DNA of 64,000 nucleotides from a bacterium (GTDB lineage: Bacteria > Auribacterota > JABMQX01). The stretch lies in assembly GCA_030691545.1 (NCBI GenBank), contig JAUYEE010000330.1, forward strand, positions 459-64,458. Reading direction: 5' to 3'. The notes beneath the pieces were generated by a model. The model ran no database searches. It saw nothing but the letters and a program-made list of their open reading frames with translations, and was not told where the DNA came from. Made by a program: the position numbers and the translations under genes. This document shows positions 53,117 through 61,552 of the stretch, one piece after another. Every line of letters begins with the position of its first letter. The stretch's first letter is position 1.

Positions 53117-53145
53117 TTGACATTTGAGGTTTTTCCGAGATAACA
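53117..53145 (+). promoter_or_regulatory. Candidate promoter of the accessory four-gene island
   Basis: Perfect TTGACA (53117-53122), 17-nt spacer, ATAACA. Confidence 0.3.
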
Positions 53146-53214
53146 TGTGAATGGGTGATATTTCTCGGGACGTGAGGTGCTGAACGTGGCTGTCAAAGGT
53201 CCCCAAGACGACCC

Positions 53215-54147
53215 TTGGCCAAGGATAGATACATGGGTCTGGCAGCGTTAGTCCCTATCAATCGAGAATTTGTTCTGCGGAAATGCGCTTTGTTTCAGGA
53301 TGTGCACTTGTGGCCTCTCCGGCAAGAGTTAGATCCGGAACGCTGGCTGAGTAATTTTCTTCCTTCCGAGATCGATCACGCCGTCCACCTTCTGAACGCC
53401 TTCATGTACTTTAGCCGGGAGGTTATGAACCAGATGATGATCGCCGCTTTTCAGGGATTAAGTCACCTCCAGTGGTGGGGGAACGAGCCGTACATAAGCT
53501 CTCGTGCTGGGTGGCGATCATTCGTGGACAGCGTACTTATCACCTGCGTCACAGGAGAGCGCCCCAGCGACACGGACAGCGGGCACCATTTCCAAAGGAT
53601 GGCTCGGCAGGTTCTCGGGATTCCGGAACAGCGCATTTTGAGCCCTGAGGACACCCTTAGGGAGATTCTGAACCATGGACCTCGGTGCGTGGTCTTTGTT
53701 GATGATTTTGTGGGTTCTGGGAGGCAGTTCAGGACAACGTGGGCGCGCGACGTCGCCGTGACTAAGTCCGCATCGATCTCGTTCCAGAAGGTGGCGTCAA
53801 TCATGCCCGACAACAGGTTCTTTTATTGCCCCCTCATATGTACTCGTCACGGCGAGAGGGTGGTCCGAAACAAGTGCCCCGAAGTCGAGGTTTGTCCGGC
53901 ACACTTCCTAGAGCCCGAATATGGTGCCCTCTCGCCCGACAGCTTCGTTTGGCCCGATCATCTTCGCGCCTCGGCATACACCTTTCTTGAACAGGCAAGC
54001 GCTCGCGCCGGGATTGCCGACACTGAATGGCGAGGTATTGATGACCTTGGCTTGGTGCTCGCGTTCGAGCATAGTGTTCCGGACGCAGCCCTGAAAATGA
54101 TATATTGGGAGAAGAACAACTGGAAACCGCTGGTCAGGAGAAAATGA
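53215..54147 (+). CDS. Phosphoribosyltransferase-like protein (island gene 1)
   Basis: VVFVDDFVGSGRQF resembles the PRPP-binding motif of type-I PRTases. The rest is unrecognised. TTG at 53215 or ATG at 53233. Confidence 0.4.
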   Translation: MAKDRYMGLAALVPINREFVLRKCALFQDVHLWPLRQELDPERWLSNFLPSEIDHAVHLLNAFMYFSREVMNQMMIAAFQGLSHLQWWGNEPYISSRAGWRSFVDSVLITCVTGERPSDTDSGHHFQRMARQVLGIPEQRILSPEDTLREILNHGPRCVVFVDDFVGSGRQFRTTWARDVAVTKSASISFQKVASIMPDNRFFYCPLICTRHGERVVRNKCPEVEVCPAHFLEPEYGALSPDSFVWPDHLRASAYTFLEQASARAGIADTEWRGIDDLGLVLAFEHSVPDAALKMIYWEKNNWKPLVRRK

Positions 54148-56063
54148 GCAAGCAACCGCGCCCGCTAACAGCTGTGGAACAGGTTAGCCGGTGGTTCGGC
54201 AGCTTCAAGGCCGAATGGCTCAGGGAGCAGATGTACGATCTGTTTACAGAGCCTTCGTATTTTCCGGAAGTCACCTCCCCCCGTCCGTGCGTGCTGTTGG
54301 GGGGCCGAGGAACCGGCAAGACGACGGTGCTCCGCTGCATGTCCTACGAAGGCCGTTTCGCCTTGACGGGCGAGGCAATCGATGGCGTGCCAAAGTGGCC
54401 GTACTATGGCTTCTACCTGCGAGTGAATACGAACAGGGTCACAGCTTTCAGTGGCCCTGAGCTGACGGACGAAAGGTGGACGCGTGCATTCGGGCATTAT
54501 TTTAACCTCGTCCTGTGCACGCTTGTCTTTCGTTTCTTGGAGTGGTATCAGCTGCGCTGTCCCCAATCGGACTCGCTGAAGCCGAACGACTGCGCCGAGG
54601 TCGCGGCGAGTCTGCATCTAGGAGATTTGACGACCCTGCGTGATTTGCTGGCAGGTGCTCGTCGGGCATTGGTGGACTTCGAAGCATGCCTAAACAACGT
54701 GGCCGAGGGAAAACTGCCGCCACTTTCCATGCAGGGCGCCCCGCTCGATGCCCTCTTCGAGGCCTTGCCTCGCCTGCCGGACTTTGTCCACAAGACGTTT
54801 TTCTTTCTGATCGACGAATATGAGAACTTCCTTGATTACCAGCAGCGTGTCGTTAACACTCTCATAAAGCATTCCGGAGAGGCCTACACTTTCAAGGTGG
54901 GGGTCAGAGAGCTTGGTTGGCGGTGCCGCACCACGCTAAACGAAAACGAGCAACTGATCCATCCCGCAGACTATGAGCGCATCCATATCCAGGAGAAGTT
55001 GGATGGCGAGCCTTTCGTCAAACTGGCGCTTCAAGTATGTAATGAGCGAATAAAGAGATTGCGTATCCCAAGAAAACGTGTACCGAACCTCGAACAGCTT
55101 TTGCCTCCCCTCGACGAAGACGAGGAAGCGGAGTTACTTGATGAGGGCAGCGGAAAGTTAGAGGCGGCCGCACGGGAGCTGTCTCGAGCCGTCCCGCCGG
55201 AAGACTCCCCTCTGCTTCAGACACTGACCCCGCTTCAAAAGTACTTCTTGCTCTGTTGGTCGCAAGGCAAGGCGATGCCGCTGGAGCAGGTCTGGCGGCA
55301 GTTCCTGGACTCCACGGTCGAGCACGAAACGCGGTACATGAATTACAAGCACTCGATATTGTATACGTTACGACGCGGCAAGCGAGGCATCCAGAAGTAT
55401 TACAGCGGGTGGAGGGTATTTACCCAGTTGGCCGCATGCAATATCAGATACTTCTTGGAGCTCGTCGTGCAGAGCCTTCTGACCGCCCTCGAACACACTG
55501 GCCGGCTTGACAAGCCCATTTCGGCCAAGATTCAAACGCTCGCTGCTCAGGCTGTGGGCAAGAAGAATCTGTCTGAGCTCGAAGGCCTGAGTGTCTACGG
55601 GGGGCAGCTGACGAAACTGCTGTTGGGCTTGGGCCGGGTTTTTCAGACCATGGCCTCTGAACCACTCGGTCACGCACCGGAGGTAAATCAGTTCCACCTT
55701 GTGGACGGTGACCCACTGTACAGTGAGACCAAGACCGGCACTGATCAACCTGACGAAGTTGAATGTCTCTTGACATCCGCCGTGATGCACCTTGCTCTCC
55801 TGCGAAGTCCAGGAAGTAAGCTGGCAGACGAGACAGAGACTAAGGACTACGACTACATGATTCACCCTATTTTCAGCCCCTTCTTCGTTTTCAGCCACCG
55901 GCGCAAGAGGAAGATGTCTCTGAGGCGCGATCAGCTGCTGGGCCTCGTACACCATCCCAAAAAGACGATCCGGGAAATACTCGCGGCCCAGAACCGCGCG
56001 ACCGAGGACCCCTTGCCGGAGCAGTTATTGATGTTCCAAGGCTACTACGATGCCGATTCGTGA
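54144..56063 (+). CDS. P-loop NTPase (island gene 2)
   Basis: Walker A GGRGTGKTT. Walker-B-like FFFLIDEYENF about 190 aa later. ATGA start/stop overlap with gene 1. Confidence 0.6.
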   Translation: MSKQPRPLTAVEQVSRWFGSFKAEWLREQMYDLFTEPSYFPEVTSPRPCVLLGGRGTGKTTVLRCMSYEGRFALTGEAIDGVPKWPYYGFYLRVNTNRVTAFSGPELTDERWTRAFGHYFNLVLCTLVFRFLEWYQLRCPQSDSLKPNDCAEVAASLHLGDLTTLRDLLAGARRALVDFEACLNNVAEGKLPPLSMQGAPLDALFEALPRLPDFVHKTFFFLIDEYENFLDYQQRVVNTLIKHSGEAYTFKVGVRELGWRCRTTLNENEQLIHPADYERIHIQEKLDGEPFVKLALQVCNERIKRLRIPRKRVPNLEQLLPPLDEDEEAELLDEGSGKLEAAARELSRAVPPEDSPLLQTLTPLQKYFLLCWSQGKAMPLEQVWRQFLDSTVEHETRYMNYKHSILYTLRRGKRGIQKYYSGWRVFTQLAACNIRYFLELVVQSLLTALEHTGRLDKPISAKIQTLAAQAVGKKNLSELEGLSVYGGQLTKLLLGLGRVFQTMASEPLGHAPEVNQFHLVDGDPLYSETKTGTDQPDEVECLLTSAVMHLALLRSPGSKLADETETKDYDYMIHPIFSPFFVFSHRRKRKMSLRRDQLLGLVHHPKKTIREILAAQNRATEDPLPEQLLMFQGYYDADS

Positions 56064-56988
56064 CCATCCCCTCCCGACGCGTTGCTACGACCGAGTGGAA
56101 CGTTTCTCTCCAGAAATCGGGAGCGCGTACGTTTTCGGCAGGTCCGTTGAGGACAGGAGCGCGCATGTCGAGAAATGGACAGAACGTGGCGAGAGTGTGC
56201 AGTTCGTCCAAATTCTGGATGAAACACGCAATTCCTTTAGGATGGCGATCGCCGGGTGTTCGCAAGAAGTGCTTCTGAGGAGCAGCTCCCGACTGGCGGC
56301 TTTTTGGTCGAGTATTGACAGGCCGATGTGCTACCTCGATATCACCGGTTTGCCTCATCACATCTGGGCTCCTCTACTCCGCTCAGGATTGAGCGCCTGC
56401 CGGCGACTGGCCGCCGTGTACGTCGAACCGGCCGACTATCAGCTGAGCCCGGTCCCAACAGAGGGCGAGATTTTCGACCTCAGCGAAAAAATATCTGGCA
56501 TCGCCCCGATCCCTGGGTTTGCTTCGCTGACCGAGCCCGCTGACGAACGCGTATGCTTCGTTCCCTTATTGGGATTCGAGGGTATCCGCTTTGCGTATTT
56601 GGTTGAGCAGGTGCAGCCTCCAGGCGAGAGAATAATCCCCGTTATTGGCGTACCCGGATTTCGTCCCGAGTATCCTTTTCACGCCTTCCAGGCCAATATG
56701 TCAGTCCTCAAGGAGACCCAGGCTTGGAAGAGCGTGCGTTATGCCAGAGCCAACTGCCCTTTCAGCCTGTTCTACCTGTTGGAGGACATCGCAGAGCAGT
56801 ATCCGGAGCACCAGCTCAAGATCGCTCCCATTGGCACGAAACCGCATGCTTTGGGTGCCGTGCTGTTTGCCGCCACTAGCCGACGGCCGGTTGAACTCAT
56901 ATATGATCACCCCATTCGGAAGGCGAAGCGCACCAAGGACACGGGGCGGTTATTTGTATATTTCGTGTCGGCATTCGCTCAAGGGTGA
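56050..56988 (+). CDS. Hypothetical protein (island gene 3)
   Basis: Overlaps gene 2 by 14 nt. No family recognised. Confidence 0.4.
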   Translation: MPIRDHPLPTRCYDRVERFSPEIGSAYVFGRSVEDRSAHVEKWTERGESVQFVQILDETRNSFRMAIAGCSQEVLLRSSSRLAAFWSSIDRPMCYLDITGLPHHIWAPLLRSGLSACRRLAAVYVEPADYQLSPVPTEGEIFDLSEKISGIAPIPGFASLTEPADERVCFVPLLGFEGIRFAYLVEQVQPPGERIIPVIGVPGFRPEYPFHAFQANMSVLKETQAWKSVRYARANCPFSLFYLLEDIAEQYPEHQLKIAPIGTKPHALGAVLFAATSRRPVELIYDHPIRKAKRTKDTGRLFVYFVSAFAQG

Positions 56989-57007
56989 CATCCACCTGGA
57001 GCAGACA

Positions 57008-58102
57008 ATGGACCGGTTCTACACACCGCCGCAGCTTGCAGAAAAAGTGGTGCGAATGGCGTGCTCCGATGCACTGCCAGAACGGGTCGCCGACTTTGCT
57101 GCCGGCAGTGGCGGTTTGCTGCACGCAGCACTTACTCGGTGGCCGGGAGCGGAGATCGTCGCAACGGATATCGACCGGCAAGCCGTCGAGCACCTTCGCC
57201 GCTCAAATGCAACGTGGCGCGTCGGCAAATGCGACTTCCTCAACCGAAATTCGCGGGCGCGCTGTCGTGTCCTCTCTGAGATAAGGGGCGGTGTCCCCTT
57301 GGTTTTGCTAAACCCTCCTTTTTCGTGTCGCGGCGGCAGGCGATGGTCAGCCGGGCTGAATGGCACCGGTGTTCGCGTCAGCAAGGCATTAGCATTCGTA
57401 ATAACGGCAATATCATACCTGGCTCCCGAAGGGCAGATCGTCGCCATTCTTCCGGCAGGGACCGTGAGAAGCGATGGGGATCGGAGGGCCTGGGAACTGT
57501 TACGGGCGATTTGTTGCTGCAAGTCGGCAGCGATGGACGGGCGTAAGACCTTCGCGGGTTGCTACCCTCAGACTATCATAGTACGCTTGAAGCTACGCTC
57601 CCGCCATGTGCGGCTGGAAAAAGTCCGTCTGTGGCGCAGCGCATATGTGAAGGCAACCAAAGCGACCACAGTCTCCATCATACGGGGGACATTTCAGATG
57701 CACACCTTGCAGAGATACCGATCATCAAGCTCCGTGCCGCTACTCCACACCACTAGCCTTGACAGAACTGAGGTTGTCGCCCCGCGGGTGCGGGTGAGCA
57801 CGTCCAGAAGGAAAGTGAGAGGTCCCGCAGTCCTGTTGCCCAGAGTAGGACAGCCCGACCCGGCCAAAATCTGCCTTTACATGAAAAAGGAGCCTGTCGC
57901 GCTGTCGGACTGCGTGCTGGCTTTGCGCTGCACCACGTGCGCTGACGCCCGTTCGGTACGACAGGTGTTGCTCAAGAACTGGGGTGTCCTCGAAACACTT
58001 TACGGTGGTACATGCGCTCGATACATAACGATAATGCGTTTGACAAACCTGCTTGAATCCTGTGGATTGTCCGTTACGAGCGCCTCATCTGATCGGTCAT
58101 GA
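57008..58102 (+). CDS. N6-adenine DNA methyltransferase, gamma class (island gene 4)
   Basis: FYTPPQLAEKVV, motif I DFAAGSGGLL, motif IV LLNPPFS. GGAG RBS 8 nt before ATG 57008. Confidence 0.75.
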   Translation: MDRFYTPPQLAEKVVRMACSDALPERVADFAAGSGGLLHAALTRWPGAEIVATDIDRQAVEHLRRSNATWRVGKCDFLNRNSRARCRVLSEIRGGVPLVLLNPPFSCRGGRRWSAGLNGTGVRVSKALAFVITAISYLAPEGQIVAILPAGTVRSDGDRRAWELLRAICCCKSAAMDGRKTFAGCYPQTIIVRLKLRSRHVRLEKVRLWRSAYVKATKATTVSIIRGTFQMHTLQRYRSSSSVPLLHTTSLDRTEVVAPRVRVSTSRRKVRGPAVLLPRVGQPDPAKICLYMKKEPVALSDCVLALRCTTCADARSVRQVLLKNWGVLETLYGGTCARYITIMRLTNLLESCGLSVTSASSDRS

Positions 58103-58194
58103 GAAGCAGGGGGGGCCGGTACAGCGCCCAGCCGAAGAGCTCGTGAATCTGAGTCACCGTCACGCGGATTCCGCGTCTGCTCACAGTGAGGCGG

Positions 58195-58536
58195 CTATTT
58201 TGCCTGCATGATGCAGTCGCGGGTGAGGGCGGCGAGTTCGGGGCCGTGGGTTTCGGAGGAGCGGAGGTCGCGGGGGACTTTCTCGTTCATCAAGTCCACC
58301 ACCTGTTTCGCGAGGTAGAGGTTGTCCCTCGATAGCTCGATGAATTTCCTCGGCACGATCACCCGTGAGGAGAGCTCTTCGCCAGCCCGCACCACCGCTA
58401 AAATCGTAGCCCTGCCTGCCCGCAGGCGCGCAAAGTCCAATCCGGGGTCCAAGTGGGTTGTGCGCGGCAATGCCGTGTCGGGTTGGCACAGCCAGAGGGC
58501 AACGCGCAGGGGACCCGGTCGAGCCAAATCATCCAA
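58195..58536 (-). CDS. Hypothetical small protein
   Basis: ORF only. No family recognised. Confidence 0.25.
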   Translation of the reverse strand: MDDLARPGPLRVALWLCQPDTALPRTTHLDPGLDFARLRAGRATILAVVRAGEELSSRVIVPRKFIELSRDNLYLAKQVVDLMNEKVPRDLRSSETHGPELAALTRDCIMQAK

Positions 58537-58659
58537 GCCCCGAACGGGCGCAATAGTCCAATGCCACTGTGATAGAGCCGCATCCCCTGAATTCTACCAC
58601 TATCGCTCGGCGCGGCTACAGATGAGTGGCAACAGTGGAAGCCGGGCCATAGTTGGCCG

Positions 58660-58796
58660 TACCGCCGGCATCTTGCCGGCTGTCTGGGGGGCATCTTGCC
58701 CCCCATTGAGGTGCTCCGCGCTGAAGCGAGTGGCTGTGGCCATCGCCTTCTGAGGGCGGGACGCCCTCAGGACAGCCGCCGAGACGGCGGCGTTAC
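58660..58796. repeat. Cluster of GC-rich triloop hairpins (GCCGGCA-TCT-TGCCGGC, GGGGGCA-TCT-TGCCCCC, TGAGGGCG-GGA-CGCCCTCA, GCCGCCG-AGA-CGGCGGC)
   Basis: The same composite element recurs at 11788-11857 and, inverted, at 17247-17345. Confidence 0.8.
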
Positions 58797-58852
58797 CTCT
58801 CGCAAGCCCCCCATTGAGATGCCAACGACCCACTGAAACGTAGCCACACGCA

Positions 58853-60355
58853 CTATCGCTCGGTGCGCGTGGCGAGTTTCTGGGGTTGGATGCGGGGAGA
58901 ATGCGCTCCGCAACTCTCGGCGTTGGTCTCCTCGGCTTGCGGACTCGGGTAGAAGCCGAACTGGCGAAGGAGCTTCAACTTCGGCAGGACATTGTTCTCC
59001 AGGTCAATGTGGAAGAAGCCGGGGAAAACATCGGGGTTGTCCATGATGAGGCGGAAGTAGGACTCGTAGCGTTCCGGGATCTCCACATTGCCGCCGTGGC
59101 AGACTTCGTGCCCCGTGAAAACGAATTCCGGGAGGAGGTACGGGCAGAATTCGAGTTGAGCTTTGCCCGCGTATTCCCTGTAGATTTCCGTCTGGGGCAG
59201 AAGCGAAAGGAGGCTCGGCAGGACCCGGGCGCCCATCATCCGGAACGAGACCATCTGGAAGAGCGACTGGTTGAAGTCCTCCATCGTCTCGAACGGAAAG
59301 CCCCACACGAAAAACGCGTCCACTCTCGGGAAAATCTCGACGGCTTTCGGAATCAGGTCGAGGCTTTCGGCTGCCGTAAATCCTTTCTTGATTCGTTTCA
59401 GCACGGCATCGGAGCCGGACTCGATGCCGAAGCGCAGCTCGATGCAGCCGCTGTCGGCCATCGCTCGCATCATCTCCACGTCCGTCAGGTTGACCCGCCC
59501 AAAAGCTTTCCACTCGACGTCAAGCCCGGACGCTTGTAGCTCGCGGCAGAAGTTCATTACCTGGCGCTTGCCCGAAACGAAAAACTCATCCTGAAAAAGG
59601 AAGAGGTCCACTCCGGCTTCGCGTTGCAGCAGCTTCATCTCCTCCACGATGTTCTTCGGGCTTCGGAAATGGCTCTCCAGGTTCCAGACCGGCGCCACCG
59701 AGCAAAATGTGCAGGGATACGGGCAGCCGCGGCTGGTCATCATCCCGTAGCCAGCGTATTGCTTGAGGTCAATCTTCGTGAACGCGGGGAAAGGAATCGT
59801 GTCGAGGTCCTGAATCCTATCGCGGTCGGGGTTGTGATGAACCGAGCCGTTGCTTCGGTAAGAGATGCCCTTGATTGTTGACAGGTTGTTCCCATTGCGC
59901 AGGACATCGAGCAAGTCAGGGCCGGTGAGCTCTCCTTCACCCCGACAAATCACATCCACCCACGGGAATAGGCGTAGGATTCTGTCCTCGACAGACTTTG
60001 TGCCGACCCCGCCCAGCACGAGAGTTCTGTCAGGATACCTTTCTCGAAGCGCCTTCATCGCCATGATGGTGAACGGCAGAAGATTCGCCATGCACGACAA
60101 CCCAATCACCGGCGCCGGGTCGTCGAGGAGCGACAGAAACGCATTCATGTCGAACGGATCATCCGCCGGGCACAGTTGGTAATCGCGGAAATCCACCGCG
60201 AACCCGGCGTTCTCCAACGCCCGACTGAGATAGAGGCAACCCAGCGGCACGTGGAGCTCTCGTTCGATCTCCTCGCCGTACCGCATGAACAGCATATTCA
60301 GATTGACCAGTGTTATATCCGATGGCATTGGACTCTGCATCCTCCTTCGCCGCAA
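58853..60355 (-). CDS. B12-binding-domain radical SAM protein
   Basis: N-terminal cobalamin-binding Rossmann-like domain, then the radical-SAM cluster motif CPYPCTFC (CxxxCxxC). Confidence 0.85.
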   Translation of the reverse strand: MRRRRMQSPMPSDITLVNLNMLFMRYGEEIERELHVPLGCLYLSRALENAGFAVDFRDYQLCPADDPFDMNAFLSLLDDPAPVIGLSCMANLLPFTIMAMKALRERYPDRTLVLGGVGTKSVEDRILRLFPWVDVICRGEGELTGPDLLDVLRNGNNLSTIKGISYRSNGSVHHNPDRDRIQDLDTIPFPAFTKIDLKQYAGYGMMTSRGCPYPCTFCSVAPVWNLESHFRSPKNIVEEMKLLQREAGVDLFLFQDEFFVSGKRQVMNFCRELQASGLDVEWKAFGRVNLTDVEMMRAMADSGCIELRFGIESGSDAVLKRIKKGFTAAESLDLIPKAVEIFPRVDAFFVWGFPFETMEDFNQSLFQMVSFRMMGARVLPSLLSLLPQTEIYREYAGKAQLEFCPYLLPEFVFTGHEVCHGGNVEIPERYESYFRLIMDNPDVFPGFFHIDLENNVLPKLKLLRQFGFYPSPQAEETNAESCGAHSPRIQPQKLATRTER

Positions 60356-60364
60356 CAGGCGAGA

Positions 60365-60922
60365 CTAACCTTCCGATTTCACATCCTCAGCGGCCTGTTC
60401 CTTCGGTTTCGGACGGTCCGGGCGAATGCCCCTGACCACTTCGTCATCGTCCGAAGCCTGTTCCTTCTCCTCGACCTGAGTCTCCGCCGCCGGTTTCTCG
60501 TCCTCCGGCCGGTCGGGCCGGGTACCCTTCACTTCTTCTCCATCGTCATCACGACAGCCCAGAGTGCTCGCCCCCAGCGCTGCCAACATGACAGCCGCCG
60601 CTCTGCCGAGAAACGCCCTTCGGCTCGTCTCGCTGACCTTCGTATTGGCGATAATCGCCTCCAGTTGGCCCCTTGGGACCGCGTTGAGCATCAGAACCTC
60701 CGCCGGACCAAGTTCCAGCTCGATCTCCTTCGCCGCCTCCGAACGTTTCTCAACCAGCAGGTTCCTGAATTCAGCGTCAACCGAAGCCTTCTTCACGAGG
60801 ACCTCGATCCCCCGCGGAATGTCCCCGAGACTCTTACCGGACCCCGGCGGCCTCGCCCCAACAATCGTCGTCCTCACCGCCTCCTGCTCCGGTGTTCTTC
60901 CCTTGTGCTCTTTCCTCGCCAT
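60365..60922 (-). CDS. NHLP-leader-like small protein with internal Tat-like hydrophobic segment and acidic tail (paralog A)
   Basis: GGAGGA RBS then ATG. Conserved IPRGIEVLVKKASVDAEFRNLLVEKRSEAAKEIELELGPAE resembles the nitrile-hydratase-type leader (AKAWxDxEFKxxLLxNPKAAIxKELGVELPE). Then SRRAFLGRAAAVMLAALGASTLGC and a D/E/P-rich tail. Confidence 0.5.
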   Translation of the reverse strand: MARKEHKGRTPEQEAVRTTIVGARPPGSGKSLGDIPRGIEVLVKKASVDAEFRNLLVEKRSEAAKEIELELGPAEVLMLNAVPRGQLEAIIANTKVSETSRRAFLGRAAAVMLAALGASTLGCRDDDGEEVKGTRPDRPEDEKPAAETQVEEKEQASDDDEVVRGIRPDRPKPKEQAAEDVKSEG

Positions 60923-60963
60923 GGCTGTTCCTCCGGTTCCATCCATTCGTTTTCTAGTTTTAC

Positions 60964-61431
60964 TCAAGCGTCCGGATCTGGTTCGGTGTCTTTGTCTGCC
61001 GGAGCTTCGATCTGCGACTTCGAGGCATTTACTTCGTCCGGCCGGATACCGCCGCATCCGTTGCAGCCCATCGTTCCAGTTCCCAATGCTGCCAGCATAA
61101 CGGCGGCCACCTTGCCGAGAAACACTGCCCTGCTCTTCCAGCTCACCTTGGTGTGGGCGATAATCGCTTCGAGTTGGCCTCTCGGCACATTGTTGAGCAT
61201 GAAGACCTCTGCCGCATCCAGCTCCAGCTCGATCTCCTTCGCCGCCTCCGAACGCTTCTCAACCACCAGCTTCTTGAATTCAGCATCAACCGAAGCCTTC
61301 TTCACCAACACCTCAATCCCCCGCGGAATGTCTCCGATGCTCTTTCCAGAACCCGGCGGCCTCGCCCCAACAATCGTTGTCCTCACCGCCTCCTGTTCCG
61401 CCGGCCTTCGCCCAGCTTTGTCAATTTTCAT
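60964..61431 (-). CDS. Paralog B of the same family
   Basis: Nucleotide identity to paralog A across the conserved domain looks about 85-90 percent by eye. Tail is NGCGGIRPDEVNASKSQIEAPADKDTEPDPDA. GAGGAGG RBS. Confidence 0.5.
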   Translation of the reverse strand: MKIDKAGRRPAEQEAVRTTIVGARPPGSGKSIGDIPRGIEVLVKKASVDAEFKKLVVEKRSEAAKEIELELDAAEVFMLNNVPRGQLEAIIAHTKVSWKSRAVFLGKVAAVMLAALGTGTMGCNGCGGIRPDEVNASKSQIEAPADKDTEPDPDA

Positions 61432-61552
61432 AGTTCGCTTTCCTCCTCGCCGCTCCACCAGTTCATTGGCAGATTGGCAATTTGCCTGCCATTGGCTGAC
61501 GGAAGGATGAATTGAGTGATACGCCTCTCTCCGTCAACGGGCGGCTTCTCTC

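Follow-up and report, generated by a model that had tools for sequence, protein, structure and literature searches.

We analysed a 64,000-nucleotide stretch of bacterial DNA (hereafter the window; GTDB lineage Auribacterota, JABMQX01; GenBank assembly GCA_030691545.1, contig JAUYEE010000330.1, positions 459 to 64,458 of the forward strand), focusing on a block of four genes at 53117-58102. We favour, with moderate confidence, the reading that the four genes make up a conflict system (anti-phage / anti-mobile-element) of the PRTase-CE type that is self-contained and moves horizontally, in which PRTase denotes phosphoribosyltransferase and CE denotes conflict effector (bioRxiv 10.64898/2026.01.15.699771, itself citing Nicastro et al. 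2023). The first gene, g1 (53233-54147), encodes a PRTase-CE of 304 amino acids (aa), the predicted toxic effector; g2 (54144-56063) encodes an ORC/Cdc6-like AAA+ ATPase of 639 aa, a predicted sensor or switch; g3 (56050-56988) encodes a stand-alone CARF6-family protein of 312 aa, a predicted nucleotide-ligand sensor; and g4 (57008-58102) encodes a gamma-class N6-adenine DNA methyltransferase of 364 aa with a predicted C-terminal target-recognition domain.

The four genes form one co-inherited, translationally coupled operon of which the methylase is a core part. All lie on the + strand; g1 and g2 share an ATGA overlap of 4 nt, g2 and g3 overlap by 14 nt, and g3 is separated from g4 by 19 nt that contain a GGAG ribosome-binding site (56998-57001), 6 nt ahead of the g4 ATG. 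An earlier interpretation made from the letters alone (the sequence-only reading) had given the same overlaps, gap and GGAG, and all were found at 53233-58102.

Co-inheritance and mobility of the cassette

We sampled 80 loci from GTDB contigs, one genome per species, in which g1-g4 were matched by tblastn. Judged by record titles, 12 phyla are represented: Planctomycetota, Acidobacteriota, Nitrospirota, Myxococcota, Pseudomonadota, Chloroflexota, Actinomycetota, Verrucomicrobiota, Desulfobacterota, Spirochaetota, Bacteroidota and Bacillota. The complete set was present at 77 of the 80 loci, 73 of them with a methylase of the window type and four (L032, L038, L042 and L043) with the Klebsiella type described below. 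The order PRTase, ATPase, CARF, methylase was kept at 71/80 loci, and at three loci a window-type methylase lies upstream of the other genes. Two loci are cut by contig ends, and the methylase is linked in 77 of the 78 that are not. Identities to the window proteins correlate across loci (Spearman rho 0.65-0.86). The sequence-only reading had treated the four genes as one unit, and these counts bear it out; the possibility that g4 is an orphan methylase was rejected, as it is linked in 77/80 loci.

The closest relative (72% identity in g2) encodes proteins of 304, 639, 312 and 367 aa with overlaps and gap identical to those of the window copy (4 nt, 14 nt and 19 nt). Its cassette is located between C10 peptidase and glycine-cleavage genes, flanks that are unrelated to the window's. 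Beyond the four genes the loci had almost nothing in common: the 141 nearest-neighbour open reading frames (ORFs) represented 126 Pfam families, nearly all listed ones singletons, and no conserved fifth gene was found among the 80 loci. Neighbours that did recur were dUTPase/DCD (14), phage integrase (7), ThyX (3), dimeric dUTPase_2 (3), resolvase (2) and AbiEii (2), to which PADLOC added AbiEi, PD-T4-6 and mad6.

The cassette was also found on plasmids of Moraxella osloensis and Burkholderia. Conjugative plasmids of Klebsiella, which account for 128 of the 149 matching plasmid records, carry a divergent cassette in the order methylase, PRTase-CE, ORC-CDC6-like, CARF6. On the Klebsiella pneumoniae plasmid OW959907.1 (2216-7267) the leading methylase has 413 aa and an HsdS-like recognition domain, and the cassette lies ~3 kb from traI. 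The PRTase of this variant matched the PADLOC model PRTase_III-A at 2.8e-24. Taken together, the co-inheritance, the variable flanks, the plasmid copies and the integrase and resolvase neighbours indicate that the cassette is a mobile, self-contained unit with the methylase at its core. The earlier proposal of an island agrees with this, since the cassette moves between genomic settings (unrelated flanks, plasmids, integrases).

A gene that processes dUTP or dCTP adjoins 18 of the 80 cassettes, and cassettes in two further records, and these genes belong to two unrelated folds. A trimeric-fold dUTPase (PF00692) abuts the cassette in 14 loci, and one locus (L035) has two tandem dCTP-deaminase-like genes (PF22769), bringing these two families together to 15/80. 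The all-alpha dimeric dUTPase (PF08761) lies 20-35 nt ahead of g1 in L030, L033 and L078 (3/80). On the Moraxella plasmid a gene of the dimeric type, annotated as 'dUTP diphosphatase', lies 3 nt ahead of g1, and on an Acinetobacter contig the dimeric dUTPase gene overlaps g1, as the accessory dUTPase-type gene often does. The dUTPase gene of L055 shares an overlap with a resolvase gene; it therefore travels with the element and is not the host dut. Both folds carry out the same chemistry, converting a deoxynucleoside triphosphate to the monophosphate and pyrophosphate (PPi). That one fold is displaced by a non-homologous one is good evidence for a functional link between dUTPase and cassette.

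ThyX (PF02511) occurs in four loci (L012, L016, L022 and L060), 45-1700 bp away, on either side and on either strand; because of the small number of loci, the variable distance and the mixed strands, it was rejected as a core part. L060 has both ThyX and a dUTPase. The dUTPase-type neighbours, along with a g1 model closest to uracil PRTases, point to pyrimidine deoxynucleotides.

Some records are of separate interest. The non-methylase genes of the Klebsiella plasmid cassette are annotated merely as hypothetical proteins. In one Dehalococcoidia locus (L076) g2 and g3 are matched in part only and a stop codon interrupts the methylase, signs that this copy may be in decay. The sole 'phage' occurrence of the cassette (CAKLQF020000018.1, 'Acinetobacter phage MD-2021a') is surrounded by efp, cstA, tRNA-Val and threonine dehydratase, and is probably bacterial chromosome and not viral. 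On the Moraxella osloensis plasmid p4 (1236-4290), ATPase_2-like and NACHT/STAND NTPase genes lie directly upstream of the five-gene operon, beside an IS5 transposase; these upstream genes are possibly a second defence system, in which case this mobilizable plasmid would carry a small defence island.

Protein families and the window copy

The g1 protein matched Pfam PF24390 (PRTase-CE) over the whole model length (1.5e-47) and the PADLOC model of retron type III-A effectors, PRTase_III-A, at 2.8e-15; judged by sequence, it is homologous to the retron type III-A PRTase effectors. It carries the motif VVFVDDFVGSGRQF, and residues D157, D158, G161, G163 and Q165 are invariant, leaving the catalytic DD motif and the GSGxQ loop for phosphoribosyl pyrophosphate (PRPP) intact, which argues for a probably active enzyme. 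G268-x14-P283 is also invariant. In the effector of Retron-Eco11 (type III-A3) the PRPP loop reads VVILTDTIGSGNQ and is accompanied by a G-x14-PNNxP motif (PMC12746101); the g1 loop VVFVDDFVGSGRQ resembles the former, and G-x14-P is common to both proteins. The predicted structure of g1 is a PRTase fold (predicted local distance difference test score 91), for which two methods agreed that the closest, albeit weak, likeness is to uracil PRTases. We rejected g1 as a housekeeping uracil PRTase given its lack of an NCBIfam match and its mobile context. NCBIfam has no family for g2 or g3 either. In the PDB, neither sequence nor profile searches turned up a significant match to g1, g2 or g3.

The g2 protein is a member of Pfam PF24389 (ORC-CDC6-like; 1.6e-136, residues 18-593), with more than 1400 homologues. 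Its Walker A motif, G53-T61 (GGRGTGKTT), and Walker B residues D224/E225 are invariant in 18 homologues, and the motif LIDEYENF is present. The C-terminal ~300 residues hold invariant H, D, E and K, and no solved relative of g2 was found by sequence profile.

In the sequence-only reading the third gene was of unknown kind. It has no Pfam family, but its entire length matched the PADLOC model CARF6 at 4.5e-120; a test for the CARF/SAVED sensor fold was positive, and g3 adopts a CARF fold. CARF6 was reportedly defined in the 2020 CARF census of Makarova et al. The family comprises about 980 representative clusters, and a profile search found no fusions of g3-family proteins to effector domains among the 150 best-scoring representatives listed. 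No signal synthase (Cas10 Palm or CD-NTase) was found in the cassette or among the recurrent neighbours of the 80 loci.

The catalytic half of g4 is Pfam N6_Mtase, a domain present in 34/36 family members, and a profile of the family matched M.BseCI in the PDB at 4e-15, followed by type I HsdM subunits, CamA and M.TaqI; these matches would place g4 among the DNA N6-adenine methylases. D29, G33 and G35 of motif I are invariant, as are D54 and N102-P103-P104, and the motifs DFAAGSGG and NPPF are present. Because g4 aligns over its whole length with the Klebsiella-plasmid methylase, whose C-terminus matches type I HsdS specificity-domain models, its C-terminal half is probably a target-recognition domain. 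This domain is conserved like the catalytic domain (32.5% versus 34.4% mean pairwise identity). Thus, all catalytic motifs in g1, g2 and g4 are intact and every motif quoted earlier is present; the earlier assignment of g4 as a gamma-class N6-adenine methylase without a canonical endonuclease also stands, by the Pfam and PDB profile class and by the lack of a nuclease domain in g1-g3. What does not stand is the description of the parts as unclassified. They are already catalogued, g1 and g2 under consecutive Pfam accessions and g3 under the PADLOC CARF6 models, and the window copy is an instance of a computationally predicted kind. Nicastro et al. 2023 are said to have predicted PRTase-CE systems and published the concept, which we know through Pfam PF24390 and citing papers.

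In the window, the g1 ATG is preceded by AAGGA and gives a protein with the length of the closest homologue (304 aa); an alternative upstream start is the TTG at 53215, the mechanical start of the ORF. A sigma-70-like promoter candidate (53117..53146, + strand) consists of TTGACA at 53117, a 17-nt spacer and ATAACA; in the scanner's version, TTGACA-18-TAACAT, it scored 10/12 and was the top-scoring site within 52.5-59 kb. The promoter noted earlier is thus present, but promoter-like sites are not in excess (3 found versus 1.8 expected in shuffles), and on its own it is not significant. A weak hairpin with a T-rich tail (58177..58204, + strand), 75 nt past the g4 stop, is a terminator candidate only, and the count of terminator-like sites equals the shuffled expectation. 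The lower GC claimed for the block is there (56.4% versus 58.7% for the window), but it lies only at the 6th percentile of same-size windows, ~1.9 standard deviations low, and is not the window's minimum, and the argument for a low-GC island is weak. The window has no integrase and no tRNA gene, thus no tRNA integration site, and a search for direct repeats on either side of the cassette found none. Between 50 and 61 kb Rfam gave no match with E as high as 1, thus no retron noncoding RNA and no riboswitch.

The NCBI annotation of this metagenome-assembled genome (Q8Q12_20455, Q8Q12_20460 and Q8Q12_20465) begins g1, g2 and g3 at internal codons, yielding 240, 463 and 263 aa as against 304, 639 and 312 here, and its g2 lacks the Walker A motif. 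We preferred the longer ORFs because homologues and Pfam model coverage support them.

Between g4 and the next gene lie 750 bp (58103-58852) with the highest GC of the neighbourhood (63.6%) and no Pfam-recognisable ORF. This interval contains short direct repeats (CACTATCGCTCGG.GCG, 253 bp apart, and GCCCCCCATTGAG.TGC, 108 bp apart) and a perfect 9-bp hairpin at ~58751-58771. Ahead of the B12-binding radical-SAM gene that follows (58853-60355, - strand; region 58853-61458) lie small ORFs, paralogous to each other (60365-61057 and 60964-61458), with the common block RTTIVGARPPGSGKS.GDIPRGIEVLVKKASVDAEF. At more than 40 metagenome loci (L088-L153) a radical-SAM homologue of 60-81% identity is preceded by 1-6 tandem small ORFs, and the arrangement looks like a precursor array with its maturase, of the type that makes ribosomally synthesized and post-translationally modified peptides. 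None of these loci has the cassette. When relatives of this radical-SAM gene were examined as candidate empty sites, the closest one's contig ended 105 bp past the gene, and the more distant relatives (60-81% identity) had neither the cassette nor the sulfatase side.

Proposed mechanism and its alternatives

By analogy with characterised systems, the cassette is most likely a methylation-linked abortive-infection system in which the ATPase and the CARF protein would control a PRTase that poisons nucleotide metabolism. In this scheme g4 would write N6-methyladenine on resident DNA as a self mark, the ORC/Cdc6-like AAA+ ATPase would act as a nucleoside triphosphate (NTP)-driven switch that senses DNA or an invader, and the CARF protein would bind a nucleotide ligand and gate the complex. 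Once released, the PRTase-CE would attack the nucleotide supply, either by consuming PRPP or by pyrophosphorolysis of pyrimidine nucleotides, and phage replication would halt, probably at the cost of host growth. We assign the effector role to g1 because defence-associated PRTases are documented as toxic effectors and g1 matches the retron III-A models. Triggering of the Retron-Eco11 effector lowers PRPP by about half (PMC12746101), and in ShosT the PRTase domain is the lethal moiety, with a pyrophosphatase fused to it as a helper (PMC11961720). The same PRTase clade includes PsyrT and Ophion OpnC (bioRxiv 10.1101/2025.09.30.679545). The accessory dUTPase-type enzyme of about one-fifth of cassettes probably feeds the effector, converting dUTP to dUMP and PPi, the substrates of a reverse uracil-PRTase-type reaction; this would parallel the HAD enzyme that feeds Calcineurin-CE and the pyrophosphatase domain that drives ShosT. 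Equally possibly, it buffers the host against dUTP build-up.

Several observations weigh against this reading. It leaves unexplained how methylation status is read, and the cassette has no gene that makes a cyclic oligonucleotide as a CARF ligand. The likeness of g1 to uracil PRTases is weak (TM 0.26/0.38; sequence-profile E about 0.8), and the C-terminal ~300 residues of g2 may hide a cryptic nuclease. The window copy has no dUTPase, integrase or defence-gene neighbour, and a locus in Azospirillum sp. TSH64 (L019) keeps intact g1-g3 homologues with no recognisable methylase within 8 kb. Finally, no experimental study of any cassette member was found in the literature searched, which did not include Nicastro et al. 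2023 or the CARF census.

The presence of a nucleotide sensor in a cassette without a signal synthase, and the loss of the methylase from L019 with g1-g3 intact, would fit an alarm derived from the methylome, an alternative that we consider unlikely: g4 would mark the chromosome, phage-induced degradation of host DNA would free N6-methyl-dAMP (or a related modified nucleotide), and the CARF protein would bind it and switch on the PRTase-CE. There is a precedent in the sibling system PUA-Calcineurin-CE-HAD, which is activated by m6-dAMP from Dam-methylated host DNA (bioRxiv 10.64898/2026.01.15.699771). The g4 recognition domain, as conserved as the catalytic domain, fits a fixed specificity, unlike the arms race of restriction-modification (R-M) systems, although ~33% identity still permits differing specificities. 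Such an alarm gives the ORC/Cdc6-like ATPase no obvious part to play, and we know of no CARF domain that binds a mononucleotide. The near-obligatory methylase (77/78 uncut loci), which groups with R-M methylases, could instead indicate a true R-M-like system, in which g2 or a g1-g3 complex has cryptic nuclease or DNA-blocking activity against DNA that lacks g4 methylation, with g1 and g3 as regulators. ORC/Cdc6 proteins bind DNA, and the invariant H, D, E and K of the g2 C-terminus would be compatible with such an activity. We nevertheless hold this to be highly unlikely, since Pfam, NCBIfam and PADLOC reveal no nuclease domain in g1-g3, the invariant DD motif and PRPP loop of g1 argue for an active enzyme, and homologous PRTases are toxic effectors in retron III-A and ShosTA (PMC12746101, PMC11961720).

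There is, in our estimate, a similarly slim chance that the cassette does not serve immunity at all and is a selfish module for addiction (post-segregational killing), or else a set of genes for pyrimidine salvage and epigenetic regulation carried by mobile elements. Its location on plasmids and beside integrases and resolvases, the resemblance of the g1 fold to a salvage enzyme and the ordinary nucleotide-metabolism enzymes next door (dUTPase, ThyX) would all be expected of such a module. But a CARF sensor, an AAA+ switch and a methylase make no salvage pathway, g1 falls in the conflict-effector clade rather than with the housekeeping uracil PRTases (it has no NCBIfam match), the phyletic distribution is patchy and the flanks vary; moreover, addiction and defence can coexist. 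We therefore retain the mobile conflict cassette, and to that extent the earlier label of a defence or R-M-like system survives. Its 'R-M-like' half probably misdescribes the killing step, which is more likely metabolic than DNA cleavage because there is no nuclease domain and the PRTase groups with nucleotide-metabolism toxins (retron III-A, ShosT).

We also entertain a more specific proposal, which we regard as distinctly improbable. Here the cassette would form a CARF pathway independent of CRISPR, with a modified or pyrimidine mononucleotide as ligand (N6-methyl-dAMP from the self-methylated chromosome, or uracil-derived) and not a cyclic oligoadenylate. Its output would be a reverse uracil-PRTase-like enzyme, fed dUMP and PPi by the accessory dUTPase or dCTP deaminase, that destroys the sole thymidylate precursor and so starves phage DNA synthesis.

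If the cassette of the favoured reading does defend its host, it would be a widespread immune system (>1400 ATPase homologues, ~980 CARF representative clusters, 12 phyla and Klebsiella conjugative plasmids) that joins DNA methylation, cyclase-free CARF sensing and a nucleotide-metabolism toxin, themes that are usually separate. It raises the testable question of what a CARF protein binds without a cyclic-oligoadenylate synthase. Given the recurrent dUTPase-type neighbours and the likeness of the g1 fold to uracil PRTases, the biochemical search can be narrowed to PRPP and pyrimidine deoxynucleotides, and the Klebsiella plasmid variant and the five-gene operon of the Moraxella plasmid are practical experimental entry points.

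Comparison with known systems

As had been said from the sequence, the cassette does not match the BREX, DISARM or classical R-M gene sets. As in BREX, DISARM and MADS, an N6-adenine DNA methylase of its own shares an operon with a P-loop ATPase, and a classical restriction endonuclease is missing; PglZ, BrxC, BrxL, DrmA/B and mad1-8 are absent from the cassette, and the PADLOC matches are weak ones of g4 to mad2 (2.4e-13, methylase core only) and of g2 to mad8 (9e-4, P-loop only). The catalytic class of g4 and its C-terminus resembling a recognition domain would be compatible with a sequence-specific methylase such as those of classical R-M (types I-III). In contrast to those systems, no endonuclease, HsdR/Res or helicase-nuclease family was found in g1-g3 by Pfam, NCBIfam or PADLOC.

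The sensor fold of g3 is that of the CARF proteins (Can1, Can2, Card1, Csm6) and SAVED proteins (Cap4, Cap5) of type III CRISPR-Cas and CBASS. However, the cassette and its conserved neighbourhood lack Cas10 and CD-NTase, and among the 150 best-scoring representatives listed g3 is never fused to an effector domain.

Retrons of type III-A have a homologous PRTase effector, with the ..D.xxGSGxQ PRPP loop and G-x14-P in common. In contrast to them, the cassette has no reverse transcriptase (no such domain by Pfam) and no noncoding RNA (Rfam), g1 lacks the C-terminal winged helix, and where the retron uses multicopy single-stranded DNA for control, the cassette has its AAA+ ATPase, CARF protein and methylase. 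ShosTA likewise has a toxic PRTase that perturbs nucleotide metabolism and a pyrophosphate-handling partner, conceptually like the dUTPase-type neighbours of the cassette. ShosT is described as adenine PRTase-like and directed at purines, whereas the nearest likeness of g1 is to uracil PRTases, and ShosTA is a two-gene toxin-antitoxin system with a DNA-binding antitoxin and without methylase, CARF or AAA+ ATPase.

In its logic the cassette resembles PUA-Calcineurin-CE-HAD, which has a nucleotide sensor, a nucleotide-depleting 'CE' effector, an auxiliary hydrolase that feeds the effector and a trigger linked to adenine methylation (bioRxiv 10.64898/2026.01.15.699771). The folds all differ (PUA versus CARF, calcineurin versus PRTase, HAD versus dUTPase), and the methylase on which that system depends is the host's Dam, whereas the cassette brings its own. 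The cassette also corresponds to the predicted PRTase-CE systems themselves, to which g1 (PF24390) and g2 (PF24389) belong by family. The concept in common is a PRTase-fold effector, predicted to target free nucleotides, that NTPase and sensor modules control.

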